From NCBI GenBank assembly GCA_021324655.1, contig JAJPIP010000060.1, positions 228 to 64,227 of the forward strand: a stretch of DNA of 64,000 nt, written 5' to 3'. This stretch comes from Pseudomonadota bacterium (GTDB lineage: Bacteria > Chloroflexota > UBA5177). The position numbers and the translations under genes are program-made. Positions 13,141 to 64,000 of the stretch are shown here, in pieces; positions within the stretch are counted from its first letter, which is position 1; the number at the start of each line of letters is the position of its first letter. The notes under the pieces were generated by a model. It had not been told where the DNA came from. It saw only the letters and a program-made list of their open reading frames with translations, and ran no database searches.

Positions 13141-13238
13141 CGTAGCAGATGCATTCCGCGCCGTATAGAGGTCGAACGGTCATCGGGCGAGGAAGGGACG
13201 GACGTCCTGCCGCCTCGGGGGCCGTTGGTCCCGGCGGT

Positions 13239-15193: not shown

Positions 15194-15432
15194 ATCTGCA
15201 TCCGAGGGGAGAGACAGCCCAAAGGGCAGCGATGACGCGGAAGGTGTCGACACGTAGAGCCTGCTTGGCCACCTGCTCGACGTCGAGCCACTGGTGAACC
15301 CGATCCGCTGAGGATCGCGTGTTGTCTTGCGGGACAGGGTCGGACAGGAGGCCGATCACCGAGCGGAATCCGGTCACTGTCGTGGGGGGTCAGGAATCCC
15401 TCGGGAGCGGAGATGGTGAAGGAGGATCGATC

Positions 15433-30370: not shown

Positions 30371-30472
30371 AGCAGCACGGGGGGATGAGGGTCACCCGCT
30401 GGTAGCTGACTTTTTACGCTTGCCAGCGCCCTCTTCACACGGTATGCTTGGCGCATTGTCGCGCACCGCCGG

Positions 30473-39185: not shown

Positions 39186-39188
39186 GAA

Positions 39189-40088
39189 GTGCGCCACCTG
39201 CTTGTGGATCCCCTCCTCTTTGCGGCTGCGTCCGATCCTGCCGGCCGCGGCTGGATCGAGCAGATTCCTTCCCTCATAGAAGAGCTCAGCCGGCGCTGGA
39301 ATCTGGACATCGGGAAGGCCCCTCTCGGTCAGGGCTACCACGCCGTCGTCCTGCCGGCCCGGCGAGGCAATGACGAGCTCGCCCTCAAGCTGGAATGGCC
39401 GCAGGCGCGCACAGGTGGAGAGGTCCGTGCCCTGACAGCCTGGGACGGGCATGGGACAGTGCGGCTCTATGAAGCCGATACAGCGCTGGGGGCACTGCTG
39501 TTGGAACGTCTCGATTCTGCCCGGACCCTCCACTCCCTGCCTCTCGGCGGGGCCGCCGTCCAGGCCGGACGGCTGCTGCGCCGCCTCATGATGCCGGCAC
39601 CCGCGGGCTTCCCCCACGTACGTGCCATTGCCGCCGACATGGCCTCCTCTCTGGATGCGCGTCAGTCGGCTCTCGGCAACCCCATCCCGCGGTCGTGGCT
39701 GGATGCGGCGCGAAAGCTCGCCGAAGACCTCGCTCGCGACGCCGGCGAAACCCTCCTGATCCATGCCGACCTGCACTACGACAACGTGCTGGCCGGACGG
39801 GGCGGTGAGTGGGTGGCGATCGATCCCAGGCCGGTCGCGGGCGAACCGGAATACGCGGTCCCTGAGCTCATGTGGACGCGGATTGACGAGATTGGCGACG
39901 ACGAAGGGGTGCGTCACCTGCTGGCATCGGTGGTCCGACACGCGGGCCTCGATGGAGAGCGCGCCCGGGCCTGGACCATCGTCCGTTGCGTGGACTACTG
40001 CCTCTGGGGCCTGGAGCACGGCCTGACGCAGGATCCACCCCGCTGCCTCCGTATCCTCGCCGCCTTGACCGAGGAGAGTCCGCCGTGA
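39189..40088 (+). CDS. Aminoglycoside phosphotransferase-fold kinase, APH(6)/StrB-like
   Basis: LLIHADLHYDNVL catalytic loop and AIDPRPVAGEPEYA. GTG start 3 nt after the upstream stop. Confidence 0.75.
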   Translation: MRHLLVDPLLFAAASDPAGRGWIEQIPSLIEELSRRWNLDIGKAPLGQGYHAVVLPARRGNDELALKLEWPQARTGGEVRALTAWDGHGTVRLYEADTALGALLLERLDSARTLHSLPLGGAAVQAGRLLRRLMMPAPAGFPHVRAIAADMASSLDARQSALGNPIPRSWLDAARKLAEDLARDAGETLLIHADLHYDNVLAGRGGEWVAIDPRPVAGEPEYAVPELMWTRIDEIGDDEGVRHLLASVVRHAGLDGERARAWTIVRCVDYCLWGLEHGLTQDPPRCLRILAALTEESPP

Positions 40089-45675: not shown

Positions 45676-46023
45676 TTTCGGCGCCAGACCCGATCCGGGC
45701 ACCTACATTGTTCCCGTCGTCGCACCCCTCGTGGATGCGTTGGTTCGGCTGTCACGACGTTCGCTCGTCCCCGCAATCGTTCCGCCCGGCATCCGCCGGC
45801 GGATCAGGTCGTCGGCTCCCACCTGCTGTTTGGTGATCGCAGCCACGCACGCATCCCGCGTGCGGCTACAGGCGCGATGTCACAGGTAGGGTCCGGCACC
45901 GGTTCGCCGCCCTCCCAGCTGCTTGACTATGAGGAGTGCATTACACTCGTTGTAAGTATGACTTCTTGAACTGGTAATGAATCTCCCGGACGGGGTTGGA
46001 TAGTCGGCAAGATAAGGAAGCCC

Positions 46024-46278
46024 ATGGACACGACAATCACAGAGAAGGGGCAGGTGACGATTCCCGTCGCCGTGCGCCGGGCGCTCGGTCTCAAGCCGCG
46101 CGACCGGGTTCGGGTGGAATACGATGCCGAGCGCGGCGTTGCCACCCTTCGACCTGCTCCGTCCCGCATCGCGGACATCTACGGAGCAGTAACACCGCGC
46201 CAACGTCCGGAGGACTTTACGGCGCGGCGTGCGGAGTTCGAAGACGGCATCGCCGACGACGCGATGCAGCGGCCCTAA
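46024..46278 (+). CDS. vapB: AbrB/SpoVT-fold antitoxin (VapB-like)
   Basis: KGQVTIPVAVRRALGLKPRDRV looped-hinge-helix motif; 84 aa; lies directly upstream of a PIN gene. Confidence 0.8.
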   Translation: MDTTITEKGQVTIPVAVRRALGLKPRDRVRVEYDAERGVATLRPAPSRIADIYGAVTPRQRPEDFTARRAEFEDGIADDAMQRP

Positions 46279-46287
46279 ACCACCGCA

Positions 46288-46695
46288 TTGTCTCGCCGTT
46301 TCATCGACACCAACGTCCTGCTGCGTGTATTGACGCGTGACGACGAGAGCAAAGGGGCCGCTGCACTCATGCTGCTGCAGCGGATCGAGCGGGGAGAAGA
46401 ACGGGCCGTAACCTCCCCGCTCGTCATCTTCGAGGTCATTTACACCCTGCAACGGTCCTACCAGGTTCCGCGTGAGCGGGTCAGGCAGCTCGTGGTGCCT
46501 ATCATCGCGCTGCGTGGTTTGGAGATACCGGGAAAATCTGTCTTCGTCCGCGCCCTCGATCTGTACGTGCAGGCACGGATTTCCTTCGCCGATGCCTACA
46601 ACGCTGCCTACATGGAGTCCCGCGGGATCGACGAAATCTATTCCTGGGACACGGACTTCGACCGTTTAGCAGGAATCGTGCGAGTGGACCCTTGA
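46288..46695 (+). CDS. vapC: PIN-domain ribonuclease toxin (VapC-like)
   Basis: FIDTNVLL N-terminal acidic motif and C-terminal ...YSWDTDFDR; 135 aa; TTG start. Confidence 0.8.
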   Translation: MSRRFIDTNVLLRVLTRDDESKGAAALMLLQRIERGEERAVTSPLVIFEVIYTLQRSYQVPRERVRQLVVPIIALRGLEIPGKSVFVRALDLYVQARISFADAYNAAYMESRGIDEIYSWDTDFDRLAGIVRVDP

Positions 46696-49170: not shown

Positions 49171-49650
49171 ATGAAGGCACTCTCTCGCCGGCTTGTCGCA
49201 CCATTCCTCTCTCTGCTGCTCCTGCTCCCTCTCGGAAGCAGCAGTCTTGCCGCCTCCTCCCCGGCGAACGTCCGGAGTCACGCCGGGCGGATGGCCGCGG
49301 TCACCATCTCCATCACCACGACCGGCACGGTCTGGGGCAAAGTCACGAGCAAGTACACGGTCAAAGGGCGGACCACCACCCGCTCCTGTGCGACGGCGAC
49401 CTGCACTCTGCGTGTCCCACGTGGCGCGACCCTGCATCTGTCTCAGTCGCCGATCGATAGCTCGACCTGGCCGTTCAAGGACTGGAAGGTCACGGTCAAT
49501 CACCGGACCAGCACCATGATGGGCAGCGCGATCTCGGTCAAAGTCAGCGGGATCGTCCGCGTGAAGGCAATCTACGTGGTGGCAGGCGGGTCGGGCTACG
49601 GCTCGGGAAGCGGTTCCGGCGGCTCCGGGAGCGGCGCCGGCTGGCCGTGA
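49171..49650 (+). CDS. Secreted protein with one divergent InlB-B-repeat-like domain and a Gly/Ser tail
   Basis: Signal peptide MKALSRRLVAPFLSLLLLLPLGSSSLAA. C..ATCTLRVPRGATLHLSQSP...FKDWKV...VKVSG.VRVKAIY fits the Listeria-Bacteroides repeat pattern. AAAGGAG lies upstream. Confidence 0.6.
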   Translation: MKALSRRLVAPFLSLLLLLPLGSSSLAASSPANVRSHAGRMAAVTISITTTGTVWGKVTSKYTVKGRTTTRSCATATCTLRVPRGATLHLSQSPIDSSTWPFKDWKVTVNHRTSTMMGSAISVKVSGIVRVKAIYVVAGGSGYGSGSGSGGSGSGAGWP

Positions 49651-49894
49651 TCCGGCCTCTGAACACCTGACGCACTCTCTACCTCCTCCGGACGGAGCGG
49701 CGCACGGCCTCCCCTGCGCCGCTCCGCCGTTCTCCTCGACGGCAAACGGTGGTACGCGTCTTGCGGCGTTGCCTTGGTACCAGACGTGGTAGGGCTTCAG
49801 CCCGCCCTCCGCAACGAACCCGGCACCTGACCGAAACTGCCGCGCGTGAACGCCTCGTCTGCCGAGTTGAGGCCAACAATGGGAGGAGCCGGCC

Positions 49895-50353
49895 ATGAGC
49901 GAATCCCGCGCTCCGCACGATCTCCCCGATGCGCTTGCCGCGAACCGGGAAGACCTCCGGCGCCGTTCCCGGGCCGAGCGCATCCACCCTCTCTGGCTCT
50001 GGATCGGCATCCTGGCCGGCCCGCTGTCCTTTCTCATGGTGCGAGTCGCCGGCATCGTCCTTCTCTCCCACGGGTGCGGGCAGACAGCCACCAGGTCCGT
50101 CCTTGGCCTCTCCTCGCCGCAGCTCATCACCACCGGAGTCACGATCCTGGGCGTCCTCATCACGCTGGCGGCGGGCCTGCTCTCCTGGCGCATCTGGCGG
50201 CGGACGAGCCTGGCCGAAGATGAGGTCTCGGCCGGAAACATGCCCCGCGTGCCCTTCTGGGCGCTGGGCGGCATGCTGCTCAACGCCTTCTTCCTGCTCT
50301 TCATCCTGGTCACCGGCGGCACGGCGCTCGTGCTGAGCGCGGGCTGCCCGTAA
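49895..50353 (+). CDS. Hypothetical integral membrane protein (about 4 TM)
   Basis: Hydrophobic segments LWLWIGILAGPLSFLMV, ITTGVTILGVLITLAAGLL and FWALGGMLLNAFFLLFILV. Confidence 0.5.
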   Translation: MSESRAPHDLPDALAANREDLRRRSRAERIHPLWLWIGILAGPLSFLMVRVAGIVLLSHGCGQTATRSVLGLSSPQLITTGVTILGVLITLAAGLLSWRIWRRTSLAEDEVSAGNMPRVPFWALGGMLLNAFFLLFILVTGGTALVLSAGCP

Positions 50354-50354
50354 G

Positions 50355-51560
50355 GTGCGGACGCTCCTCGCCGCCGCCGTCCTGGTGGTGCTGGCCGTCA
50401 TCGCCGGCTTCCTCATCTATGCGCACGTCACCTATCCGACAACCTCGGCCGGCAACGTCCTCGCCGATCTGGTCTCGGCCGAGCAACACCCGCACATCTC
50501 CCTGCACGGCGAGACCATGGCCTTTCTGCCCTACTGGCGCCTGGACAACATCCAGTACGCCCGCTACGACCTCCTCTCGGAGGTCAACTTCTTCAGCCTC
50601 ACCATCGGACCCGACGGGCACATCGTCCAGATCATCGGCAATCAAACCGAGCCGGGCTGGCGCTGGTGGAACACGCCCCAGGTCGAGGACCTGATCCCCC
50701 GAGTGCAGATCGCCGGTGCCACCTTCGGCCTCACCCTCGCCATGCTGAACAACAGCGACATCCGGTCCTTCCTGGCCGGCCCGAGCGCGCAAGAGAATCT
50801 GATCGCCGACACGGTGGCGCAGGTCCGGGCCCGCCGGCTGAACGCGATCACCCTGGACGTTGAGTATGCCGGCACTCCGCCCGCCGTGGACCGCCGCGAG
50901 TTCACTTCCTTCGCGGAGCGCTTTTCCCTGGCCCTGCGGCAGCGTGCACCGGGCGTCCAGCTCAGCCTGACGCTCCCGCCCGAGGCCGGCCGGGACCGCG
51001 GCCTCTTCAACCTCCCCGCTCTGGCTCCCCTTTTCGACCGTTTCATCGGCATGACGTACGACTACTACAACTCCAGCACTGCCGTGGCGGGACCGGAGGC
51101 ACCGATGCGCGGGTTCTCGCCGCACCGGTACATCTTCGACGTCACCACTGCCTACCGGGACTATCTGCTCGCCATTCCACGCACGAAGATCGTGATGGGC
51201 ATCCCGTATTCCGGCTGGGACTGGGCCGTGCGCAAGGGGAAAGGACTACTGCGCCCCGTCCTGCCGCCGAGTAATCCCCACAGCTACGCCGCCATCCTCT
51301 CCTACGGCAGGATGCGCAGCTTCGCGGCGCTCAACGGGGCGCAATGCCGGTGGATCAAAGACGCGGAGGAGCCGCACTGCTGGTACACGGACGGCACGGG
51401 CACCCGGCACTCGGTGTGGTTTGAGAACGACCGCTCGATTGCGGTGAAGGACGCCTACGCCCGCGCGCAGGGCTTCGCCGGCATCGCCATCTGGGTCCTC
51501 GGCTACGACAGCAAGTATCCCAACCTGTGGGACATCCTGCGCCGGACGCTCCAGCGATGA
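50355..51560 (+). CDS. Membrane-anchored glycoside hydrolase family 18-like protein (YaaH/YdhD-type)
   Basis: N-terminal TM anchor. LNAITLDVEY (D-x-E catalytic-type motif), MTYDYY and IAIWVLGYD blocks. Confidence 0.7.
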   Translation: MRTLLAAAVLVVLAVIAGFLIYAHVTYPTTSAGNVLADLVSAEQHPHISLHGETMAFLPYWRLDNIQYARYDLLSEVNFFSLTIGPDGHIVQIIGNQTEPGWRWWNTPQVEDLIPRVQIAGATFGLTLAMLNNSDIRSFLAGPSAQENLIADTVAQVRARRLNAITLDVEYAGTPPAVDRREFTSFAERFSLALRQRAPGVQLSLTLPPEAGRDRGLFNLPALAPLFDRFIGMTYDYYNSSTAVAGPEAPMRGFSPHRYIFDVTTAYRDYLLAIPRTKIVMGIPYSGWDWAVRKGKGLLRPVLPPSNPHSYAAILSYGRMRSFAALNGAQCRWIKDAEEPHCWYTDGTGTRHSVWFENDRSIAVKDAYARAQGFAGIAIWVLGYDSKYPNLWDILRRTLQR

Positions 51561-51984
51561 CGGTTAGCAGTCGCGTCTCGTGTGAATGACGTCCGCCGTT
51601 ACCAGCTGTGTCGTCACGGCTGAGTCCGCTCATCTGGAACCGCGGGGCGTGGATGATCCGATCATCCTCCCGGAGGCTAGGGGGGACTGGTTATTCCCGG
51701 CGTTGACTCCAGCCGCTTCTGAGGCCGGAGACCGAGACCAACTCGCAGACGCTTAGGAATGCCTTTCCAAACTTGTAGGGCTGGTACGTGACCGGGCGGC
51801 CGCTCTGCAGTCGGGACTTGAAGTACGCGCGCGCCCCGCGAGTGACCATGCCCGGTCCGGGCCCGCCTACCTCGAGCGCTTGCGCACGGAGGCCACTGGC
51901 AGGCGACCAGCCTCACCGTGTATAGTCCTCATCGCTGCGTCTTCACAGATGCGACGACTTGACCATTGAGGAGAATAAACGTCT

Positions 51985-54900
51985 ATGAAGACGCAGTTAC
52001 CGGTTGGACTGCGGATCTTGGTCATGGGTGCGGCGGTTGTAGCGCCGCTCGCGACCGGGCGGTCCCTTGCCTCGCCGGCCACGCCCGCCCCTGCCGGTCT
52101 CAGCGTCTTCCATGGCAACCCGGCCCACACGCCACTCTATCTCGCTTCCTATCGTCGATTCCGCCACGCGGCTAGAGATCCGCGGCGGCGTCTGCCGGCC
52201 CACAAGCACCGCTTCCGTGCTTCGCTCAGCTCCGCCTGTGCGCCCGGATGGACCTGCCGCGATATCGGCACACCGCTGACAGCTGGCGGTGACTCCTTCG
52301 ATGGTACGACCTGGACGCTCGAGGGGAGTGGGGATCTCGGTGGGTCTAGCGACAGCTATCACTTCGTGTGGCAGAACTGGGGGAACGCTAGCACCGCGAC
52401 GGCCACGGCTCACGTTGCCTCCATCACGGGGACAGGCGCGGACGTCTCGGCCGGCGTCATGATGCGGGATGGCACCGACCCAACCGCCAACTTTTATTCG
52501 GTCAGCATCACGGCAGGCAACCAGATTCATGTCTGGTACCGCAATACGTTTGGTACCTCGGTCGTCTCCGCCCCGGTGCCCAGCGGGACAACCGCCGCCT
52601 ACATTCAGATCCAGCGAACTGGCTTCCTCTTTACGGCAGCGACCTCATCCACCGGCGCGCCGGGCAGCTTTACGACGGTTCCCGGTACAGCGATCGGTGT
52701 CGATATGGCAACCACCTTGGCCGGCCTCTACGTGACAAGCGGTGACAGCAGTCTCACGACAGCCACCTTTGATGGGGTCAGCACGAGTGGCGGAGGAACA
52801 CCGGTCACAGACTGCCCGAGCAATTGGGCCTGCCAGGATATCGGCAATCCTACGCCGGCCGGGACGCAGCACGCGACAGTCGATGGGTCGGCATGGGCAC
52901 TCGACGGCTGGGGCTACGGCCTCCTCTATAACTCCGGCAGCGGCAACAGTAACGACCAGTTCCGCTATGGATACCAGTACTTCAATGGGGGCGGTGCGAT
53001 CACCGCGCGCGTCACCTTCAACACGCAGCAGGTCAACGGGAGCGAAGAAGAGACGGGGCTGATGTTCCGGCAGAGCACCGCCGGGGCCAGTCAGTACTAC
53101 GGCATCTTTGCCCGCGGCGGGTCGGGTGTCGCGGTCCAGTTCCGCGGGTGCGGCTATGCACCGACCTGTGACCTGAACACCCCATCCAGTTGCTACGACA
53201 GCAGCGCCACGCTGCCGATTTATCTGCGCCTGACGTGGTCCGGAGGCAATACCTTCACCGCAAGCGATTCCCCGGACGGCATCACCTGGAAGACGATTCC
53301 GTGCCCGGTCAGTAACGGCGCCGGCACCATCCTCTGGCCATTCAGCAATGTCGCGTTGGGAGGACTGGTCAATGCGACCGCAACCCACCCGACGCTCGGC
53401 ACCTTCGACAACGTGTCGGTCCAGGGTGGCCTGGGACCGACGGCGCCCGAAGTGGGCAGCCCGACCGAGCATGGCACCACCTGCGACTGCGGCCAGCCGG
53501 TCAACATGGCGACCGGCTCCTTCTGGCACACCTTCAGTGACATCGCGATCCCGGGCCGGGGCCTCCCGCTGGATCTGACGCACACGTATCGCTCGCTCCT
53601 GGTGAGCCAGGATAGCCCGCTCGGATTCGGCTGGACCGACAGCTACAACATGTTCCTCTCCTCCAACGCCGATGGCTCGATCGGCGTCCACGAGGAGAGC
53701 GGCACCGTCGTGACCTTCGCTTCGAATGGATCCGGATACCAAGCGCCTAGCCGCGTCCTGGGCACATTGACAACTAACAGTGACGGCACTCTCACCTTCA
53801 AGCGGAATGACCAGACCAGCTACGTGTTCTCCGCACCGACGCCGTCGACCGCCGGGCGGCTCCTGAAAGAGATCGATCGCAACGGGTACACGACGAGCCT
53901 CAGCTATAACGGGAGCGGCCAACTCACCACAGTGACCGACCCGGCGGGCCGGACCCTCTTCTTCACGTACAATGCTGCCAACCGCATCCAGAGTGTCGCC
54001 GATCAGAGCGAGCGGCAGGTGTCGTTTGGGTACGACAACAACGGCAACCTCACGACGGCGACCGACACGCGGAACGGTACTTGGTACTTCACCTACGACG
54101 CCAACCACGAACTGCTCACGATGGAGGATCCCCGCCAGTACGCCCTCCACGGACCACTCTCCAGCGGGCCGGTCGCCACCAACGTCTATGACGACGTGGG
54201 GCGCGTGACGCAGCAGACGGATGCCATAGGGCGGGCGACACAGTTTGCCTACGCGATGAATAGCGACGGGACACATCGGACGACCATCACCGATCCCAAG
54301 GGGAACGTGACGGTTCAGGTCTACCAGAACAACGAGCTGGTGTCCCTGACGAAGGGTGAAGGGACCTCCCAGCAGGCCACCTGGACCTACACCTATGATC
54401 CCGCGACCCTCGGCGTCACCTCGGTCACCGATCCCAACAATCACACCTGGAACTACGCCTGGGACTCCAACGGGAGTCTGCTCACGACAGCACAGCCCCT
54501 TGTGAGCGGGGAAAGTTCGCGGCGCACGACCACTTACACCTACAACGCCTTCAACGAGCCACTCACCATCCAGGATCCGTCCGGCATCACCACGACGCTC
54601 ACCTATGATGCCAACGGCAACCTCGAGACGATCTCGCGTCCCCTGAACGGGATGCAGCCATCAGCGCCGACGCGCACACAATCCGGCATTTGCATCGGAT
54701 CGTGCCCGACGCCCACCCCGACCCCCACACCGTTTGAGGGCAAGAGCACGCCGACGCCGACACCCCGCGCGACCGCCACCCCCACGCCGCGTCCCACGGC
54801 CACGAGCACGCCTCGCCCCACCGCCACGAGGACCCCGCTTCCCACCCCCACGGGTACGCCCCTTCCCACGGCGACCAATACGCCTCTCCCGACCCCAACG

Positions 54901-57501
54901 AACACCCCCCTCCCGACCGCCACCAACACGCCGGCGCCCACCGCCACCAATACCCCGCTGCCCACCGCAACCGCCACCAGCACGCCAACCAACACGCCAA
55001 CGCCGCTGCCGACGCCCACCCTGGGGCCGTCATCAGCCTGCACCGTGTCGACACCGACACCGCCCTCGACCACGAGCCAGGTCATCACCTTCCAGTACGG
55101 GGACAGCACCCACCCCGGCGATGTGACTGGCTACGTCGATCCCAAAGGCAACACCACGACCTTCCAGTACGACAGCAATGGCGATCTCACCCAGGTCTGT
55201 GATCCCCTCGGCAACGAGACCACGTACGGGTACGACGGCATGGGCCGGATGACCTCCATGGTCAGCCCCAAGGGCAACGCCCCCGGCAGCAATCCAGCGT
55301 CCTTCACGTCGAGTTACATCGATAACGCCGCCAACCAGGTCACGCAGGTGACCGATCCCCTCGGCCACATCACGAGCGACCAGTACGATGAGAACGGCAA
55401 TCTGATCCAGACCACCGATCCCCGCACCAACCTCACGACCTATGGGTATGATGCCGACAACGAGCTCACGAGCGTGACCCGGGCGAACACCCCGCCGCTG
55501 ACCTATGGGTATGACGGGGACGGCAACCTCCAGACCGAGTCCAACGGCCTGAGCAAGACGACGACCTACGGGTACGATCCGCTGGACCGCCTGAGTTCGG
55601 TCACCGATCCCCTCAGCCGGACGACGGCCTACGGATACGATGGCGCCGGCAACCTCACCTCGGTCCAGGACGCCCTGCAGCGGACCACGACCTACGGCTA
55701 CGACGCCGTCAACGAGCTGACCTCAATCACCTACTCGGACGGGACAACCCATAACGTCTCCTACGGCTACACCCCGGATGGACTGCTCGCCAGCATGACC
55801 GACGGGACGGGGTCCAGCTCCTTCCTCTATGACTCTCTGAATCGCCTGGTGCAGGCCACCGATGGGGCGGGCCAGGTGGTTAAGTACGGTTACGACCTCG
55901 CCAACAACCTGACGAGTCTCACCTACCCCAATACCGAGGTGGTCAGCCGAGGCTACGATGCCGACAACCGTCTGACGAGTGTCGCTGACTGGCTGAGCCA
56001 CACAACCTCGTTCGGCTACGACCCGAACAGCAATCTCACCAGCGAGACCTACCCTAACGGGACGGCTGCCAACTTCTCCTTCGATAACGCCGACACCCTG
56101 ACCCAGATCGCCGACACGAAGGGTGGCGCCCCCTTGTGGACCTTCGGCTACACGCGCGATCCCAACGAACAGGTCCAGACCAGCACCGATCCCTTGCAAA
56201 GTGCAACTCACACCTACAGTTACGATGCCCTCAACCGTCTGACCGGCGACAGCCAGGGATCCAACAACACGACGACCTGGGGGTACGACAACGCCGACCA
56301 GCTGCAGACGGTGACGAACACGGCGGCCAACACGGCCAGCACCTATCAGGACGATCCGGCTGGCGAGCTGACAAGTCTGGTCACGACCACGGGGAGCACC
56401 ACCACCCAGAACCTGACTGTGGGGTACAACGCCAAGGGAGACCGGACCAGTCAGAGCGACAGCGTGAGCGGGACGAGCACCAGCTTCGGCTACAACCAGG
56501 CCGATGAGCTGACGGGCTTCGCCCGCGGGAGCACCACGGCGAATTACGCCTACGACGGGACCGGATTGCGCATGAGCAAGACCGTGAACGGGACGACCAG
56601 CCAGACCACCTGGGATCGGGCAGAGGGGATGCCGCTGGTCCTGGTTGATGGCAGCACCAGCTACCTGACCGGTCCGGATGGTCTCCCCCTCGAGCAGATC
56701 GACGGGAGCGGCAATGCTCTCTACGACTACCAGGACCAACTGGGCAGCACCCGGGGGATGGCCGATAGCAGCGGGAATGTCATGGCCACCTTCAGTTACG
56801 ACGCCTATGGCAACCTGACAAGTGCCACCGGGACGGTCACCACCCCCTTTGGCTATGCCGGCCAGTACACGGACGCCGAGTCGGGTCTGCAGTACCTGCG
56901 GAACCGGTACTACGATCCCAGCACGGAGCAGTTCCTGACTGTCGACCCGCTGGTCGGGCAGACTCAGCAGCCGTATGGCTATGCGGGGGACAACCCGGTG
57001 AACTGGGATGATCCCTCCGGCCTGTGCTCGTTAGGGCCAATAAAGACGCCATTCTGGGGTAGAGGACCGTGCTTCCATCTGCCAAACCGAGGACCAGACT
57101 ACGTGACTGTTCAAGTTCAGGTGGGACCTATCGTAGGGGCGCAGGCCGGCGTGACCGTCACCCGCTACGGGCAGATCTACGGCGATGCGGGCGCGAATGT
57201 CGGCACACCGGGGCTCGCCGTCACCGGAGGAGCGGGGTGGATCAACCAGGCGCAGCCTCCATTGCCGTGCCAGATCAACGCTTTTGTGGGGGGCTGGAGC
57301 GTTTCGGGGAGCGTGACCCTCGACGCCGGAACCGGCGTCACGTGGGGTCAGCCGTGGGAGCCTTTTGGCTGGAACACGCCGAGCATGAAGCAGAGTGACT
57401 TCGCTTACGAGGCACTTTTTGGCACACCTCAAGCCGGGATTTCTGACACGTATGCCGTCAACCGATTTCCCTGGTCTCGCTCCCCCTGGCGATTACCTTG
57501 A
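51985..57501 (+). CDS. Rhs/YD-repeat polymorphic toxin with a Sec signal peptide (1,838 aa)
   Basis: GAGGAG lies upstream. Signal peptide [29 protein letters not shown]. Two ~190-aa internal repeats, then [25 protein letters not shown] (Rhs N-terminal plug). Dozens of YD repeats (Y.YD..G.L....D..G). The core ends [19 protein letters not shown]...[19 protein letters not shown] (57007-57027). A unique 157-aa tail follows. Confidence 0.95.
54706..55077 (+). repeat. Pro/Thr-rich low-complexity insert (~124 aa) inside the Rhs repeat region
   Basis: [53 protein letters not shown], then four 8-residue units P-T-[AP]-T-N-T-P-[LA] (about 54864-54970). The insert is flanked by Cys residues (GICIGSC ... 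SSAC). Confidence 0.9.
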
Positions 57502-57878
57502 TGCCACGAAACGAGGACACGCCTACTCTGACCACGTGGCCACGGGCGTCTGCTCCGGCGGCGCTCAAATGGTGGAACCGCCTCACGCTTGCACTGCTGG
57601 CTGTATTCCTCGTGGCGGGCGCGACGACGCGAAGTAAGAGGCCGGCGGGCGTTGTTCTAGTGCTGGGCGGGCTCGTTCAGGTGGTGTTCGGCCTAGCCCT
57701 AGTGCTCAACTACAGAGAGTTCACCGACAGAGTGGCTCACTACTATGCGCATCGTCCACTCATGCTAGGGGGGCACATTCTTAACCGCAGTGTGAAGCTG
57801 ACCCGCATCGAGGGCCTCGCGATGGTATCCGCGGGGCTCGTGCTGTCCTCCCTCGGGGTACTTCTTCTCGTGACATGA
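57501..57878 (+). CDS. Putative immunity protein 1 (3-TM membrane protein, 125 aa)
   Basis: The ATG overlaps the Rhs stop (TGATG). Hydrophobic segments LTLALLAVFLVAGATT, VVLVLGGLVQVVFGLALVL and LAMVSAGLVLSSLGVLLLV. The immunity role is inferred from position only. Confidence 0.6.
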   Translation: MPRNEDTPTLTTWPRASAPAALKWWNRLTLALLAVFLVAGATTRSKRPAGVVLVLGGLVQVVFGLALVLNYREFTDRVAHYYAHRPLMLGGHILNRSVKLTRIEGLAMVSAGLVLSSLGVLLLVT

Positions 57879-58675
57879 TCTGTCTCGCCAAACGGCGACT
57901 TACTGACCTTTGGCGAATTGACGGCGCGGGAAACGTGGCTGCGACCGTGAGCTACGATGCCTGTGGCAACCTGACAAGTGCCACCGGGACGGTCACCACC
58001 CCCTTTGGCTATGCCGGCCAGTACACGGACGCCGAGTCGGGTCTGCAGTACCTGCGCAATCGCTACTACGATCCGAGCACGGAGCAGTTCCTGACCGTGG
58101 ATCCCCTGCAGGCGCTGACCCAGCAGCCGTACGGCTATGCGAGCGACAGTCCAGTGAACTGGGACGATCCGGAGGGACTCACCTCGGCCGGTGTTTGTGT
58201 ATCCGGTCTGGGCGGGTGGGCTTACGGCACTTACAACTCGGCCTGTCTGCAGGTGGTTACTGGTGGCAATGTCGTCAGTGACGTGGTGGGTACGCTCGAA
58301 TGTCTCGGAGGTCTGCTGTCGTCGTGCCTCACCGAACTGGGCCGCGTCGAAACGCTGGGTGCAACCTGGACAACCGGAGGAGGTGCGCAGACGCCGGCAG
58401 CTGGCGCAAGTCTCGGCGTTCAAGTCACGAATGCCACGTCTCTCTGTGATCTCGGGGGCTGGTTTGCGTATGGCGGAGGCAGTGCCTTTGAGCCGGTGAC
58501 TGTGGGGGTAGGTGGCTTCGGTGGACTGGCGGGGAGGATTCTAGGCGGAGAGCTCGATCTTGGTGGAGGGGCCGACTTTCCGGTCCCGGGCGAACTGCAC
58601 GGAGGGATGAGCTACACGTGGACAGAGACGATCTGGACCCGTCACCGCCCGGGGAACAGGCGTCCACACGAATGA
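57875..58675 (+). CDS. Orphan Rhs fragment 1: ~100-aa core remnant plus alternative C-terminal toxin domain
   Basis: [52 protein letters not shown]...PVNWDDPEGL, then an unrelated Gly/Cys-rich tail (58181-58672). 93 bp are identical to the main gene. The ATG overlaps the upstream stop (ATGA). Confidence 0.75.
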   Translation: MICLAKRRLTDLWRIDGAGNVAATVSYDACGNLTSATGTVTTPFGYAGQYTDAESGLQYLRNRYYDPSTEQFLTVDPLQALTQQPYGYASDSPVNWDDPEGLTSAGVCVSGLGGWAYGTYNSACLQVVTGGNVVSDVVGTLECLGGLLSSCLTELGRVETLGATWTTGGGAQTPAAGASLGVQVTNATSLCDLGGWFAYGGGSAFEPVTVGVGGFGGLAGRILGGELDLGGGADFPVPGELHGGMSYTWTETIWTRHRPGNRRPHE

Positions 58676-59214
58676 CCGGTGCGGGAATCGTGCCATCCAT
58701 GATGCGGTCCAACCACGAGTTTGAGACCCCGCTGTCTCCGACCGAGGTTGTACGGCGTATCGAGAGTCTCACCGCGCCTCCAGGGAACGCCTTCACTCGG
58801 CGGCTAGGGATGAATATGGACTACCCGTTGCGCGGCTATGTGACACCGGGCGGGTTCAGAATCACTCGCAACACCAAAGGGTTAAATAGTTGGCGTCCTG
58901 TCGCTGAAGGCGCCGTTTTGGGCAGGCCGAGCGGCAGCCTGGTGACAGTCAACTTTCGGCTCGACGAGCGAGTCCGAATAGTGCAGATAAGCTTTCTAGC
59001 TGTCTGGGCCAGTTTGATGACCCTCGTCAGCGCGACGGCCATCGTGTCCGGCCGCCTAAGTGCGCTCATGCCGGTCGTAGTTCTGGTCCTTATCGCCGGA
59101 CAAGCGATTGCCGCGTATAGGGCTGGTCGCCTCAGCGGAGGCAAGCAGCGAGCCGAGATTCTGGACATCCTTTGCCAGCGACTTGACCTACACCGAGTTG
59201 AAACGCAGGGGTGA
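58672..59214 (+). CDS. Putative immunity protein 2 (soluble N-domain plus 2 TM, 180 aa)
   Basis: ATG 58672 overlaps the orphan-1 stop (ATGA). Hydrophobic segments IVQISFLAVWASLMTLVSATAIV and LMPVVVLVLIAGQAIAAY. Confidence 0.6.
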   Translation: MTGAGIVPSMMRSNHEFETPLSPTEVVRRIESLTAPPGNAFTRRLGMNMDYPLRGYVTPGGFRITRNTKGLNSWRPVAEGAVLGRPSGSLVTVNFRLDERVRIVQISFLAVWASLMTLVSATAIVSGRLSALMPVVVLVLIAGQAIAAYRAGRLSGGKQRAEILDILCQRLDLHRVETQG

Positions 59215-60005
59215 GAGTCGTCCTACCACGCACCTTGACGACTATCGATGGGCCGGGGACCATGGCTGAGATTTTTAGCTACGATGCCTATGGCACCGTG
59301 ACGGGGGCCACCGGGACAGTCACCAGCCCCTTTGGCTATGCCGGCCAGTACACCGATGCCGAGTCCGGACTCCTGTACTTGCGGAACCGCTACTACGATC
59401 CGGAGACCGATCAGTTCCTGACGGTCGATCCTCTGGGGTCGCAGACTCAACAGCCGTACAGCTACGCTACCGACACCCCGCTGAATGTCACGGACCCCTT
59501 GGGGCTCTGTGGTTGCGGGTCAGCGGGAGCTACGGGTTCGGGGCCTCTCGGTTGGATTTGGAACTGGATTCAGCAGCATGCTGGCGAAATCTCCTTGCTA
59601 GCTGGTGTTGCCGGTGTTGCTTTGACCAGCGTTGCCCCCGAGTGGCTACTGATAGCGCTAACAATCATTGCGATAGGCGCCGGGGTTATTGCCGCCTGGC
59701 ACGACTATCAAAACGGTGATTACCTGGCAGCGGCTCTCGATCTCGGGGGAGCGGTCACCGGCGTCCGGGCGCTGCAACTACTTGTGAAAGCCGTCAACCT
59801 CCTGAGGGAGGGAGTGACCTGGGCCAAACTCGCTGGCTTCATGGAGGAATTGGGGAATGATGAGGGGTTCCTGACGGATCTCCGAGCGGCCGAGCGGAGA
59901 GGGCTCGCGGCGGGAGCGGACAAGGAGGCTTCCGACTGGTGGGCATGGAAGAGCAACGATCTTGCCGCGGCGGGGCTCGGTGTTGCGAGGGCTTTTGGAT
60001 GCTGA
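59211..60005 (+). CDS. Orphan Rhs fragment 2: core remnant plus alternative C-terminal domain containing a hydrophobic helical hairpin
   Basis: [53 protein letters not shown]...DPLGLC, then a tail with ISLLAGVAGVALTSVAPEWLLIALTIIAIGAGVIAAW. The GTG overlaps the upstream stop (GTGA). Confidence 0.7.
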   Translation: MRVVLPRTLTTIDGPGTMAEIFSYDAYGTVTGATGTVTSPFGYAGQYTDAESGLLYLRNRYYDPETDQFLTVDPLGSQTQQPYSYATDTPLNVTDPLGLCGCGSAGATGSGPLGWIWNWIQQHAGEISLLAGVAGVALTSVAPEWLLIALTIIAIGAGVIAAWHDYQNGDYLAAALDLGGAVTGVRALQLLVKAVNLLREGVTWAKLAGFMEELGNDEGFLTDLRAAERRGLAAGADKEASDWWAWKSNDLAAAGLGVARAFGC

Positions 60006-60451
60006 CTAGGCGCATCGCCGTCTTGGGCAACTGGTTCGCGTGGCTCGGTACGCCTGCGGATTCCCGGGCCGCTGTCGGCCTCGTCGGTGACCTGCCCGGG
60101 CGGTTCGCGGAGGACTGCCAGAGCGAGACGATTACCCTCGCGTTCGTTTGGGGCGGCCTGGTCATCGTGTTTGCCCTTGGTGCGATCGCCATAGGCGCAG
60201 TGCACTCGGCGATAGCGGGCGGGCACCCGCATGCACTCTTGACTGCCTTTTTCGCGCCCACCATATTTGCACTGACAGGTGTAGTGCTGCAGGGCATCAG
60301 AGCGATGGTGGCATCGGTGCTCGTTTCGAAGATCGGCCGAGGAGGTTACTGGGAGCCTCCTCCAATGGTAAGGTGGCTGCTCACACCACGGGACGCCGAC
60401 CTCCTGGTCCAGCTCGCGGTCGCCGTCCTCTTTGTGCGTGCCAACACCTAG
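59999..60451 (+). CDS. Putative immunity protein 3 (about 3 TM, 150 aa)
   Basis: ATG 59999 overlaps the end of orphan 2 (ATGCTGA). Hydrophobic segments ITLAFVWGGLVIVFALGAIAIGAV, LLTAFFAPTIFALTGVVLQGI and LLVQLAVAVLFV. Confidence 0.55.
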   Translation: MLTRRIAVLGNWFAWLGTPADSRAAVGLVGDLPGRFAEDCQSETITLAFVWGGLVIVFALGAIAIGAVHSAIAGGHPHALLTAFFAPTIFALTGVVLQGIRAMVASVLVSKIGRGGYWEPPPMVRWLLTPRDADLLVQLAVAVLFVRANT

Positions 60452-60463
60452 AGCAGAACGCCG

Positions 60464-60730
60464 ATGTCACAACCCTCCCAGCCTGGTGAAAAAGGGGTGG
60501 GTAAATTGAAGGACTTCTCGCACTCGAAAGTCCTCCCCACCCTCATGCTCGGTCCTCCCAAGCAGCGCGACCTCGATCGCTGTGTCCTGGTCTCCCTCGA
60601 CCGCCTGGTCCCTCCCCACCACGTCTACCGTCATCTCGAACGCACGCTTGATCTGTCCTTTGTCCGGGAGTGCGTCGTCCGCGGTCGTCGTGGGAGCGGG
60701 GTCTGTCTCAACCGGTTGGTCTGCGCCTGA
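60464..60730 (+). pseudogene. IS5/IS1182-family transposase remnant (N-terminal DUF772-like segment only)
   Basis: MLGPPKQRDLDRCVLVSLDRLVPPHHVYRHLERTLDLSFVRE (from 60545) resembles the conserved LVPxDHxYRxLExxLDLSFVR N-terminus. No DDE domain follows. The frame ends at the point where Rhs-core homology resumes. Confidence 0.55.
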
Positions 60731-60745
60731 ACGGGCCCGACCCTG

Positions 60746-61534
60746 GTGGTGCCAGCAGGCGGTCTCCCCTTGGAGCAGATCGCCTCGAACGGGGAAGTCC
60801 TCTACTTCTACCAGGATCAGCCGGGCAGCACCCGGGCGCTGCTCAACCAGAGCGGGACCACCGTGGCGACGTTTGCCTACTTCGCCTATGGGACCCTCAA
60901 GAGCAGTACGGGGACAACGACCACCCCGTTCGGCTTTGCCGGCCAGTACACAGACAGTGAGTGGGGGCTTCTGTACCTGCGGAATCGCTATTACGATCCC
61001 GGGACCGATCAGTTCCTGACGGTCGATCCCCTGTCGTCGCAGACTCAGCAGCCGTATGGCTATGCGGGGGATAACCCAGTGAACTGGGATGATCCCTCGG
61101 GGCTATGCAGGGCGGGCTTCGTCAATCTGCCAGTCGGAGGTCGGGGCAGGTGCTCGGATGAGGTCGACCAAGGCATCCGTGAAGGTGCGCATATCGCGCT
61201 CGACCTTGCCGCCGTCCCGCCATACACTGCTTACTATGTTTCTTACGAGGTTTCGCGACGCGTCAACAGGTGGGGGGCTCAGCACGGGCCAGCGGCGGTC
61301 ATTGCGAGCCGTACTGCAACGGCCCCCCTGATTGTCCCCGAAGGCCTGGGACTCGGGGAAGATGTGGTCATCGACTGGATAAAGGGGCATTCGGTGAACA
61401 ACGAAACCCCTTGCGACGAGGGCAAAGTCGGGTACATCAATCCGCTGCATGCCTACGTGCCTCGCCCCCTCAGGGGGCCTGTCACATATCTGCCCGGCGT
61501 GCACCGCGGTGGCGCCGTCGACTGGGAATGGTAG
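60746..61534 (+). CDS. Orphan Rhs fragment 3: ~120-aa core remnant plus alternative C-terminal toxin domain
   Basis: GLPLEQIASNGEVLYFYQDQPGSTRALL...[34 protein letters not shown]...[19 protein letters not shown], then a unique 141-aa tail (61109-61531). Confidence 0.75.
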   Translation: MVPAGGLPLEQIASNGEVLYFYQDQPGSTRALLNQSGTTVATFAYFAYGTLKSSTGTTTTPFGFAGQYTDSEWGLLYLRNRYYDPGTDQFLTVDPLSSQTQQPYGYAGDNPVNWDDPSGLCRAGFVNLPVGGRGRCSDEVDQGIREGAHIALDLAAVPPYTAYYVSYEVSRRVNRWGAQHGPAAVIASRTATAPLIVPEGLGLGEDVVIDWIKGHSVNNETPCDEGKVGYINPLHAYVPRPLRGPVTYLPGVHRGGAVDWEW

Positions 61535-61538
61535 CGTC

Positions 61539-61796
61539 ATGGATGCTCTTCTCAGCATGGGATTCTTGGCGGTCATTGCCCTCGCAGAGTCGATGGGTGC
61601 TGCCTTGGGCGGCCTGTGGACGTGGCGGCTTCTACGCCGTCGCGCGGTGAATCCCGTACTGGCGATGATCCTTGCGATCGTCGCGGGCATGATCGCGTTT
61701 GGAGGGCCATGGATGGTGCTCGATGTCGTATGGCTTGCCCGGTCCTTTCATCGCCTGTGGGGACGCGCATTCAGGAGGCGGCGGCCAGCGACTTGA
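61539..61796 (+). CDS. Putative immunity protein 4 (2-TM, 85 aa)
   Basis: ATG lies 4 nt after the orphan-3 stop. Hydrophobic segments MDALLSMGFLAVIALAESMGAALGGLW and VLAMILAIVAGMIAFGGPWMVLDVVWL. Confidence 0.5.
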   Translation: MDALLSMGFLAVIALAESMGAALGGLWTWRLLRRRAVNPVLAMILAIVAGMIAFGGPWMVLDVVWLARSFHRLWGRAFRRRRPAT

Positions 61797-61827
61797 CAGG
61801 GATTCGGCCCGAAGAGGGGCTACGCGG

Positions 61828-62091
61828 ATGTATGCCGGTGATGACCCGATGTTCGCGACTGTCCTAGTCACCCTTCTTATCGGTGCGGTCGTAGCGGCGC
61901 GTCGGCTCCGCCCTCGCAACCGCGAGGCCGGACCCCGCGGCGTTGGCCGCGGGGCAGGTAAGCGGAAGGTCGTCGGCATCGCGGCCCGGGGGAAATCGCG
62001 TCGAGCTCTGGGAGCCGGCGCCCGGGGATCGACTGCCGCTGATCCCCGGACACACCACGGGAGCCCCCCTGTCCGGAACTGGCTAGCATGA
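61828..62091 (+). CDS. Possible small protein with one TM helix and a basic tail (87 aa)
   Basis: ATG 61828 lies 8 nt after GAGGGG. MFATVLVTLLIGAVVAA is followed by Arg/Gly/Lys-rich sequence. Weak; this could be non-coding. Confidence 0.25.
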   Translation: MYAGDDPMFATVLVTLLIGAVVAARRLRPRNREAGPRGVGRGAGKRKVVGIAARGKSRRALGAGARGSTAADPRTHHGSPPVRNWLA

Positions 62092-62114
62092 GGGACCAAC
62101 CAAGGGGGCGGGTG

Positions 62115-63500
62115 ATGACCGAGATGAATGACGATTTACTCCGCGACGCCGCGTCGTACGCCGGCCGCTGGCTCGACTATCAGCAGCGTCTGAAGGAGAT
62201 TCCGGCGGTCACGATCGCCATCCGGCACGGCGATGACGTGGTTCTGTCGGCCGGATACGGGCACGCCAACCTGGAGACAGGCGTCCCGGTGACACCGGAC
62301 CACATCTTCCGCGTGGCGTCTCACTCCAAGTGGTTCACCGGAACGGCCATCATGCAGCTCAAAGAGGCCGGCCGGCTGCGCCTCGACGATCCGCTCGGGC
62401 AGTACATTCCATGGCTCCAGCCGCCGCTCGCCGCCGTGACCATCCGGCAGGTGCTGAATCATGCCGGGGGCATCACCCGTGACGGCTACGACAACGATCA
62501 CTGGCAGCTCGAGCACCCCTTTCCCGATGTGGAACAGCTGCGCCGCCTGGTCGAGGAGGGAGGCGAGGTCCTGCCCGCCAACCAGAAGCTCAAATACTCC
62601 AACATCGGCTACTCGCTCCTCGGACTGGTGGTCGAGGCGGCGAGCGGTTCTCCCTATAACCGGTACGTGCGGGAGAACATCGTCGATCGCCTGGGACTGC
62701 AGAACACCGGGCCGGAGACGAACGAGGAGGCGCGGGAACGCATGGTGACCGGGTATACCTCGCGGGCCCTGCTCGAGCCGCGCCTTCCTTTGCCGGATGC
62801 CGACACCCACGCCATGTCGGCGGCGACCGGCTTCTATTCGACCGCGCCCGACCTGACACGCTTTGCCGCCGCGCACTTTCTGGGCAACGACGAGCTGATC
62901 TTGGACGAGTCCAAGCGCGAGATGCAGCGCCCCTACTGGCCGGTGCGGGATGCGGACAGTTATGGCCTGGGCATGATGGTGGCGAGAGTCGGCGAGCGCT
63001 GGATGCCGGGACATGAGGGCGGCTTCCCCGGCCACGCGACGCGCACCCTGCTGGATGCCGGCCAGCAGCTGGCGGTCTCGGTGCTGACCAGTGACTCGGG
63101 AGGTGACGCCGACGCCCTGGCGAAATCCGTGGTCCGGCTCATCGACCTCGCTCTGACGCAAAAGCCCGCCGCGAACCCCACCGAGCTCGATCGCTACACG
63201 GGGCGTTTCAGCAGCCTCTGGGGGTACGTGGATATCGTCCGCCTCGGCAATCAGCTCTTCCTCATCTCCCCGGAGAGCGATAATCCGGCCGCCGACGTGA
63301 CCAGGCTGGAGCCCGTGGAGGTGGACACCCTCAAGATCGAGGAGAAGGAAGGGTACGGCTCCCCCGGTGAGCACGTGCGCTTCATCAGAGACGGCGAGGA
63401 CGCCGTAGAGCGCGTCACGATTGCCGGGGCAACCGTCTATCCGGAAGGGAGGCGGGAGGAGTATCTCCAGCGGCGCCGCCACGAGCTGGCTGCCCGCTGA
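62115..63500 (+). CDS. Serine hydrolase, beta-lactamase/transpeptidase-like family
   Basis: SHSK (SxxK) and YSN motifs. ATG 62115 follows AAGGGGG; the alternative ATG is at 62088. Confidence 0.85.
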   Translation: MTEMNDDLLRDAASYAGRWLDYQQRLKEIPAVTIAIRHGDDVVLSAGYGHANLETGVPVTPDHIFRVASHSKWFTGTAIMQLKEAGRLRLDDPLGQYIPWLQPPLAAVTIRQVLNHAGGITRDGYDNDHWQLEHPFPDVEQLRRLVEEGGEVLPANQKLKYSNIGYSLLGLVVEAASGSPYNRYVRENIVDRLGLQNTGPETNEEARERMVTGYTSRALLEPRLPLPDADTHAMSAATGFYSTAPDLTRFAAAHFLGNDELILDESKREMQRPYWPVRDADSYGLGMMVARVGERWMPGHEGGFPGHATRTLLDAGQQLAVSVLTSDSGGDADALAKSVVRLIDLALTQKPAANPTELDRYTGRFSSLWGYVDIVRLGNQLFLISPESDNPAADVTRLEPVEVDTLKIEEKEGYGSPGEHVRFIRDGEDAVERVTIAGATVYPEGRREEYLQRRRHELAAR

Positions 63501-63651
63501 CGTCTCGGTGCGCAGGGTCAGAGCCGCGATCGCATGATGCCCTGAATGTGGCAAGGGTGCTGTCCGGCCCGGATATTGCGGGCGGAGGGGTCTGAGGATC
63601 CTCCGGGCGGGGACACCTCGCCGGCTTCGCCGGGTACTTGAGGCGGCTGCG

Positions 63652-64000
63652 ATGTGCGTGAACTGCGCCCGTTTCCGGGGAGGGCACGGGCGCGACGGGC
63701 AACATGGCGTCGGCGCAGATCGATCCGATCTGAGCGTCGTTGCCTCCTGCCTCGATATTCCGATCAGCCGGGCACGCCTGCTGGCAGGCCTCGGGGCCGG
63801 CCTTGCCGGACTGGCGACGGGCGGTCTCTGGAGAGCATCCGCTGACGCCGCCGGTCTTCCTTATATCGTGCTCATCGTGCTGGATGGGGCCAGGCCCGAA
63901 TACCTGGCAGCGCCCGGCCTTCCGCACGTCGCCGGCCTCATCCGGCATGGGACGCAGTACACCAATGCCTTCGCCGGCATCCTGGAGTCGGAAACTCCGT
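63652..64000 (+). CDS. Alkaline-phosphatase-superfamily protein (type I phosphodiesterase / nucleotide pyrophosphatase-like), N-terminal part; continues beyond the window
   Basis: The frame is open to the window end. ISRARLLAGLGAGLAGLATGG is signal/Tat-like. LPYIVLIVLDGARPEYL is the typical metal-site N-terminal strand. The start is uncertain (ATG 63652 or GTG 63658). Confidence 0.6.
   Translation, partial: MCVNCARFRGGHGRDGQHGVGADRSDLSVVASCLDIPISRARLLAGLGAGLAGLATGGLWRASADAAGLPYIVLIVLDGARPEYLAAPGLPHVAGLIRHGTQYTNAFAGILESETP

Follow-up and report, generated by a model that had tools for sequence, protein, structure and literature searches.

How a large Rhs toxin could be exported, and what its toxic tips could attack, are the questions raised by a locus at positions 51985 to 61796 of a 64,000-nucleotide stretch of contig JAJPIP010000060.1 (assembly GCA_021324655.1, GTDB lineage Chloroflexota; UBA5177), hereafter called the window. 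In this locus a long Rhs gene is followed, on the plus strand, by open reading frames (ORFs) of ~265 aa and ~85-180 aa that alternate up to 61796. We read it as a Rhs polymorphic toxin of an uncultured soil bacterium, WapA-like, exported by Sec, independent of a type VI secretion system (T6SS) and accompanied by an orphan array, with a probability of about 0.75. An orphan toxin/immunity array had already been proposed in a first-pass annotation of the DNA, and the hidden Markov model matches, the core-end repeats, the abrupt divergence of the tails and the small ORFs were all found. The design is already known while the cargo appears to be new, as the four uncharacterised toxin tips match no described family in our sequence searches, and of these at least two are probably directed against the cell membrane or envelope. 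On our reading of the locus, the main-gene-plus-orphans Rhs design works unchanged in uncultured soil lineages with a high guanine plus cytosine (GC) content that rely on Sec export, and the practical value of the locus lies in its cargo of four tips and four immunity proteins outside described families, two pairs of which recur as modules.

The Rhs gene and its displaced cassettes

The 1,838-aa ORF was said to carry the Rhs hallmarks, and the profile searches bear this out. RHS_repeat (PF05593) matches it in Pfam with an E-value of 2.8e-99 over 16 stretches, YD_repeat_2x (TIGR01643) and Rhs_assc_core (TIGR03696, aa 1605-1680) match in NCBIfam with E 2.7e-69 and 1.7e-20, DUF6531 is present, and the solved Rhs structures 7q97, 8h8a and 8cp6 (Tse5) match the shell (E 1e-45 to 1e-39). 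On these matches the ORF is a bona fide Rhs/YD polymorphic toxin gene. The motif ...NWDDPSGLC closes the core at 57027 and is followed by a unique tail of 157 aa, as first described; all coordinates of that description hold on the ORF map. The features of the locus are the following.

51970-51973 (+): ribosome-binding site GGAG of the main Rhs gene
51985-57501 (+): main Rhs/YD polymorphic toxin gene, 1,838 aa (ORF map, Pfam, NCBIfam)
51985-52071 (+): predicted Sec (signal peptidase I, SPase I) signal peptide, aa 1-29, read from the sequence
52234-53460 (+): two tandem N-terminal repeats, tentatively ConA-like lectin/carbohydrate-binding module (CBM) beta-sandwiches (alignment; low-confidence model)
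53491-53718 (+): DUF6531 plug domain, ending IPGRGLPL (PF20148, E 3e-16, aa 503-578)
54652-55077 (+): Pro/Thr-rich insertion in the YD-repeat shell, ~140 aa (aa ~890-1031)
56797-57027 (+): Rhs-associated core end with the aspartyl autoprotease motif YLRNRYYDP...DPSGLC (TIGR03696)
57028-57498 (+): CT0, toxin tip of the main Rhs gene, 157 aa, predicted Vap-like eight-stranded beta-barrel
57501-57878 (+): I0, candidate immunity protein, 125 aa, three hydrophobic segments
57875-58675 (+): orphan 1 (O1), core fragment (homology 57941-58170) and CT1 (58181-58672, Gly-rich)
58672-59214 (+): I1, candidate immunity protein, 180 aa, a soluble N-terminal part then two transmembrane (TM) helices
59211-60005 (+): orphan 2 (O2), core fragment (homology 59274-59485) and CT2 (59511-60002)
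59999-60451 (+): I2, candidate immunity protein, 150 aa, at least two TM helices
60464-60730 (+): 88-aa ORF between cassettes 2 and 3
60746-61534 (+): orphan 3 (O3), longest core fragment (homology 60761-61108) and CT3 (61109-61531)
61539-61796 (+): I3, candidate immunity protein, 85 aa, two TM helices

The N-terminus of the Rhs protein is signal-like, with a K/R n-region, a 13-residue hydrophobic core and a cleavage site between SLA and SP; it contains one hydrophobic segment (aa 5-23). A Sec/SPase I signal is thus plausible and would presumably export the 1,838-aa protein. Behind it lie two repeats (aa 84-275 and 276-492, about 195-215 aa each) that align with 30% mutual identity and matched nothing in Pfam and PDB sequence searches; Pfam found no cell-wall anchoring domain of the CWB/LysM type in aa 1-505. 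The AlphaFold model of the first repeat has a low confidence (predicted local distance difference test, pLDDT, 49; predicted template modelling score, pTM, 0.51), and its top Foldseek matches are almost all ConA-like (CBM66, a GH43 C-terminal domain, LNS/LamG and CBM40). A carbohydrate-binding role, by which the two lectin-like domains might hold the protein on a cell surface, is tentatively suggested by these models. The YD-repeat cocoon, with the DUF6531 plug as its lid, would enclose CT0. Since the autoprotease motif YLRNRYYDP...DPSGL of the core is intact, cleavage of the tip is predicted: by analogy with the rest of the family, the core aspartyl protease would free CT0 by a cut after DPSGL. 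The Pro/Thr-rich insertion is made of 24-nt periodic repeats and is replaced by 4 residues in the homologue P0016, which shares 44-47% identity with the shell on either side of it; the insertion may form a loop at the surface and could be glycosylated. A genome scan with the full Rhs protein did not find a close relative.

A Rhs toxin of similar build is WapA, which with its partner WapI is said to have been described in Bacillus subtilis by Koskiniemi in 2013. In B. subtilis the WapA tips act as tRNases and their immunity proteins are cytoplasmic; at our locus, by contrast, the four partners are all predicted integral membrane proteins. WapA of B. subtilis and of Streptococcus suis, where it is a Sec-dependent Rhs toxin of a Gram-positive bacterium (PMC12704120), shares with our protein the absence of T6SS domains, the DUF6531 plug, the YD cocoon, a polymorphic tip delimited by DPxGL and, on our predictions, a signal peptide, a downstream immunity gene and a surface-binding N-terminal region. 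The two also differ, as the putative ConA-like repeats of the low-confidence model stand in place of LysM/cell-wall-binding repeats, no sortase or SecF-like gene is adjacent, and the host belongs to a GC-rich uncultured lineage. Our Rhs protein is not a WapA orthologue.

Downstream of the main gene, the end of the core occurs three more times. The three orphans restart within its last 70-117 codons, as had been noticed, and TIGR03696 matches their N-termini in NCBIfam (E 1.6e-19, 7.4e-21 and 1.5e-20 for O1, O2 and O3). At the DNA level, identity with the main core end is 88% over 230 nt for the O1 fragment, which includes an exact run of 93 nt, 81% over 212 nt for that of O2 and 77% over 351 nt for that of O3. 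Such identities are, on the alignments, far beyond chance, and their decrease with distance from the main gene is as expected under serial displacement of tips. Past DPxGL, no two of the four tails are similar to each other, in agreement with their first description as unrelated; a kinship of CT0 and CT1, suggested by their like Gly-rich composition, was not supported in pairwise BLAST. A small ORF comes after each tail (best starts chosen: 57501, 58672, 59999 and 61539), and the hydrophobic-segment reading makes all four, I0 to I3, polytopic membrane proteins. Tails and small ORFs gave nothing in Pfam at E up to 10, ordinary housekeeping domains included, or in PDB sequence searches, and word-indexed protein searches with CT0, CT2 and CT3 returned nothing or the query itself only. 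The tips and small ORFs had also looked more A/T-rich than their surroundings. This is clear at third codon positions, where GC is 0.62-0.70 in the tails, 0.67-0.75 in the small ORFs, 0.76-0.79 in the core fragments and 0.83-0.85 in the Rhs shell, and it is weak in raw GC (0.60-0.64 against 0.654 +/- 0.023 upstream, or 1-2 standard deviations lower). A lower third-position GC in tails and small ORFs fits imported modules.

Stop and start codons overlap at five of the seven junctions of successive genes. The ATG of I0 at 57501 overlaps the Rhs stop (TGATG), and an in-frame ATG of O1 at 57875 overlaps the I0 stop (ATGA); the ATG of I1 at 58672 overlaps the O1 stop (ATGA), a start also found in the JGI gene call, an in-frame GTG of O2 at 59211 overlaps the I1 stop (GTGA), and the ATG of I2 at 59999 overlaps the O2 stop (ATGCTGA). 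I3 starts 5 nt past the O3 stop. O3 alone is set apart from the upstream cassette, behind the 88-aa ORF. The motif LVPPHHVYRHLERTLDLSFVRE of this ORF may resemble the N-termini of IS5/IS1182 transposases; the idea of an insertion sequence remnant received no support from Pfam, NCBIfam, tblastn or phmmer. Promoter and terminator scans at the locus did no better than on shuffled sequence.

Orphan arrays were defined in enterobacteria (Poole 2011, PMC3150448; Koskiniemi 2014, PMC3967940). The enterobacterial Rhs arrays and those of contact-dependent inhibition (CDI) loci share with ours the tandem fragments of the core 3' end, each with a distinct tip and immunity gene, and the direct repeats suited to recombination with the main gene. 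They differ by their T6SS or CdiB delivery, while ours has membrane-protein partners and two orphans with coupled starts, so that the usual definition of an orphan as a gene with no translation start of its own does not hold for O1 (ATG) and O2 (GTG). One could then suppose that the orphans are translated, through translational coupling, as cytoplasmic proteins of ~265 aa that, together with their immunity genes, serve for addiction or stabilisation or act as decoys, and are not substrates of recombination. The overlap of the in-frame O1 and O2 starts with the upstream stop codons would suit this, as would the three orphan reading frames, all intact, and the ends of the tips, the alignment of CT3 with its homologues running through its final residue and that of CT1 with its relatives in L013 and L062 stopping ~15 residues short. 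We nevertheless hold it to be unlikely: the orphans have neither signal peptide nor cocoon, O3 has no coupled start and an unrelated ORF in front of it, and the enterobacterial orphans studied are activated when they recombine with the main gene (PMC3967940). Moreover, expression of the orphans and a role as reserve are compatible with each other. In the reading that we prefer, a reserve of displaced cassettes, O1/I1, O2/I2 and O3/I3 would keep intact tips and membrane-embedded immunity genes, and the latter would give standing protection against neighbours deploying those tips. The core-end direct repeats of 212-351 nt would allow RecA-type recombination, by which an orphan tip would be fused to the full-length gene and the weapon switched.

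The active tip CT0 and its partner I0

The first-pass annotation could assign none of the four tails to a toxin family. This stands insofar as no described family was matched, but CT0 and CT3 belong, by their sequence matches, to recurrent yet undescribed families. For CT0, HMMER gave 88 matches, about 81 of them genuine, among 1.84 billion representatives, the family size being about 80 clusters at 50% identity. When the CT0 alignment is projected on these proteins, the domain lies at the extreme C-terminus, with no residues beyond, in 67 of 81. Its carriers include RHS/DUF6531, Ricin and TIG proteins, together with many short orphan-like fragments. The matches thus describe a widespread family, so far unannotated. 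In all eight loci examined, the gene after the CT0-family tip, often overlapping it, encodes a protein of 87-125 aa with two or three TM segments. The CT0/I0 pair itself recurs in L092, where the toxin is 51% identical to CT0 and the partner of the tip P0002 is a relative of I0 (47% identical, E 1e-27), and a second partner family of CT0-type tips is common to L091, L096 and L028. The recurrence of CT0/I0 and of CT3/I3 in unrelated contigs is what is expected of cognate toxin/immunity modules.

At 4001-4818 of L092, and also in L093 and L094, the CT0-like tip and I0-like partner are free-standing, without a Rhs core fragment, and the L092 contig carries a DDE transposase gene ~1.6 kb upstream of the pair. 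This arrangement suggests that cassettes move as toxin/immunity units.

The structure prediction and Foldseek comparison called for in the first-pass annotation were run on CT0. From an alignment of 47 sequences, AlphaFold gave a model with a pLDDT of 86.9 and a pTM of 0.78, made of four strands, one helix and four strands. Its top five Foldseek matches in the PDB are all Vaps (VapG, VapD and VapB) with a probability of 1.0 and a TM(target) of 0.54-0.58, and the matches below them have a probability of about 0.2 or less. The Vap fold, an eight-stranded double-Greek-key beta-barrel with one helix, is found for CT0 in the predicted model only. The family consensus is Gly-rich with a conserved Trp at the end, and the Vap barrels have a novel topology and are Gly-rich, with a Gly-rich C-terminal stretch ending in Trp (PMC4118825). 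CT0 thus shares a high Gly content and a C-terminal Trp with VapA, VapB, VapD and VapG of Rhodococcus (Prescottella) equi (PMC4118825, PMC4089522). VapA permeabilises liposomes and collapses proton gradients (PMC10100859), an activity that fits the membrane-embedded partners of CT0. Unlike CT0, which would be a cleavable tip of a polymorphic toxin, the Vaps are secreted on their own as virulence factors, have no immunity genes and act on the membranes of the host.

We propose membrane permeabilisation by CT0 on the basis of the conserved pairing of toxin and membrane partner and of the membrane-active fold. CT0 would then be a Gly-rich Vap-type barrel that acts on the target cytoplasmic membrane, probably permeabilising it and dissipating the proton gradient, while I0, with its three TM segments and its translation coupled to the Rhs stop codon, would shield the producer and its kin; for the action of CT0 we see the odds as evenly balanced. 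The broader proposal, that the whole CT0 family consists of polymorphic-toxin tips in the Vap fold, always accompanied by small polytopic membrane immunity proteins, is more doubtful. If it is true, the Vap fold would be first of all a weapon between bacteria that permeabilises membranes, with the virulence factors of R. equi as a host-directed offshoot, and the family might account for how the Tse15 toxin of Acinetobacter baumannii, so far unexplained, works. Through the active tip, a large group of antibacterial toxin domains could in this way be connected, in a manner open to testing, with the membrane-active Vap fold; how that fold acts in R. equi is still under debate.

The resemblance to Vap proteins, whose site of action is the endolysosomal membranes of the host, and the lectin-like domains at the Rhs N-terminus could also mean that the targets are eukaryotes (amoebal or fungal predators, invertebrates), as for Tc toxins and Vap proteins, rather than rival bacteria. 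We find this distinctly improbable, because each tip has its own adjacent membrane protein that co-varies with the toxin in unrelated contigs, which is sensible only if the membrane of the producer itself is at risk, and because orphan arrays are characteristic of systems that act between bacteria (PMC3150448).

The orphan tips and the standing of the reading

CT3 resembles the tip of a full-length Rhs protein of Acidimicrobiales (L008; 43% identical, E 1.6e-29) and is 38-57% identical to seven metagenomic tips (L084-L090). The family stays conserved up to the D(F/W)EW at its end and has D, E, K and G positions that do not vary, and in L090 the CT3-type tip is borne on a non-Rhs N-terminus, a change of carrier typical of polymorphic toxins. 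The CT3/I3-type pairing recurs in L008 and L089, where the ORFs after the CT3-like tails encode 2-TM proteins of ~100 aa that match I3 (E 1e-4 and 4e-4). In L084, L085, L087 and L090 the partners are instead proteins of ~130 aa with a signal peptide and a lipobox, to which the 2-TM proteins are unrelated. Since both types of partner put immunity outside the cytoplasm, it is most likely there that CT3 would act.

Over its C-terminal ~100 aa, CT1 shares about 40% identity with Rhs tips of loci from Amycolatopsis (L062) and Solirubrobacteraceae (L013), and the partners of these tips differ from I1. CT2 had no homologue in any sequence search made. It is strongly hydrophobic in its N-terminal part (aa ~25-65), which is probably helical, and judging from this segment CT2 probably inserts into membranes. 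Envelope-acting tips and membrane-located immunity would make sense for a weapon without an injection machine, an idea that can be examined across Sec-dependent Rhs systems.

As I0 to I3 are all small polytopic membrane proteins and S. suis WapA is served by a dedicated SecF-like membrane partner (PMC12704120), the small ORFs might be thought to encode helpers of export or release (holin-like or SecF-like accessories) and not immunity proteins. We give this very little credit: a different small protein lies downstream of each tip and overlaps it, the sequence families of the small ORFs switch along with the toxin subfamilies, CT3 relatives have the lipoprotein-like partners instead, and the S. 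suis helper sits upstream and is non-polymorphic.

Several points weigh against the Sec-exported, membrane-attacking toxin that we favour. Its support is computational throughout, and if the host is diderm, a Sec signal alone would leave release unexplained. The N-terminal domain model is of low confidence (pLDDT 49). No main-orphan recombinant and no rearranged array was present in four independent assemblies of the locus, and for CT1/I1 and CT2/I2 no conserved pairing was seen elsewhere, so that they are toxin/immunity candidates by position. As for CT0, its link to Vaps stands on the predicted fold alone: Vaps and CT0 have no significant sequence or profile similarity, the comparison of the CT0 family with six pVAPA1037 Vaps by hhalign being not significant (probability 0.4%, E 0.13), and Pfam R_equi_Vir matched none of the 81 or 47 family members. 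The Foldseek match to Vaps was thus not joined by a sequence-profile confirmation, and in view of the hhalign result we do not claim homology. Finally, the one sequence-level link of CT0 to a tested toxin is a marginal match of the family profile (E 0.009) to residues 1513-1578, about the last 65, of the C-terminal domain of Tse15.

The toxic domain of Tse15, Tse15tox, kills E. coli from the cytoplasm by an unknown mechanism and is neutralised by Tsi15 (PMC11461821); killing from the cytoplasm neither requires nor excludes a membrane target. Tse15 (PDB 8uxt, 8uy4) shares with our protein the Rhs cocoon and, on our reading, the enclosed tip and the cognate immunity protein, and differs by its T6SS delivery through VgrG15 and by an N-terminal clade domain that is alpha-helical. 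In Pseudomonas aeruginosa, Tse5 has a pore-forming tip. As proposed for our locus, its Rhs cocoon delivers a membrane-depolarising tip, with a membrane-associated immunity protein; but delivery depends on T6SS, and the tip is hydrophobic and helical, in character nearer to CT2 than to CT0.

That our Rhs protein is an effector of a T6SS, a type VII secretion system (T7SS) or another dedicated apparatus encoded elsewhere in the genome is the least credible alternative: the apparatus search covered only 64 kb of the genome and the CT0-family profile does weakly match the tip of a T6SS effector, yet Pfam and NCBIfam found no PAAR, prePAAR, VgrG-binding, LXG or WXG domain in the protein, its N-terminus is signal-like, the Pfam scan showed no T6SS, T7SS or TpsB (CdiB-type) gene among the ~40 other ORFs of the window, as first stated, and the closest core ends come mostly from Actinomycetota, Dormibacterota, Chloroflexota and Clostridia, phyla mostly without T6SS.

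Related loci and surroundings

The closest Rhs core ends are 58-66% identical and belong to metagenome-assembled genomes (MAGs) of Actinomycetota (Acidimicrobiales, Solirubrobacterales), Dormibacterota and Chloroflexota and to one MAG of Thermoanaerobaculia (Acidobacteriota), with Clostridia next. The architecture is less unusual than the first-pass annotation took it to be, as it is common in MAGs of Actinomycetota, Dormibacterota and Clostridia. Tandem core-end arrays reach four copies in L041 and five in L048, both Clostridia MAGs, and arrays of three to five fragments were seen across L041, L048, L011, L023, L034 and L057. Their frequency among the relatives fetched makes the architecture common in these phyla, and orphan arrays would be widespread outside Proteobacteria.

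The locus is not confined to one assembly. The last 14.7 kb of the window (49260-64000) are 99.98% identical to DASRCI010000027.1 of MAG GCA_035653155.1, and the locus was also found on two JGI soil-metagenome contigs and one Logan contig. Both JGI contigs stop inside I1 (58857-59010), and one of them has a 1-nt deletion at 58884 relative to the other three assemblies, which could be an artefact or reflect population heterogeneity.

Directly upstream of the Rhs gene, 49171-51560 (+) carries three genes, whose products are a small protein that looks secreted and has a tail rich in Gly and Ser, a polytopic membrane protein of 152 aa and a GH18 protein with a membrane anchor. By analogy with S. 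suis WapA, which uses upstream membrane accessories, a functional link of these genes to the Rhs protein is conceivable.

Products of the other ORFs of the window are enzymes of sugar metabolism, GGDEF/EAL proteins, an ABC/FtsX pair, peptidases and the like. For a neighbouring GH4 gene, tblastn against plasmids found matches of no more than 46%, in Bacillota. Large PAS-GGDEF-EAL proteins are encoded at 10420-13179 (-) and 30410-33769 (+). A cyclic di-GMP-II (GAG variant) riboswitch lies at 15231-15314 (+), with an Rfam score of 40.5 bits against a gathering score of 40, and overlaps the 5' end of a 622-codon frame (15298-17166) that has no Pfam domain; the true start of this frame is probably inside it, downstream of the riboswitch. 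At 45970-46695 (+), a PIN-domain protein (46279-46695, E 2e-16) is preceded by a 103-codon ORF, the two probably forming a VapBC-type toxin-antitoxin pair. At 39186-40088 (+) we found a phosphotransferase of the APH(6)/hydroxyurea-kinase family (Pfam, E 1e-24).

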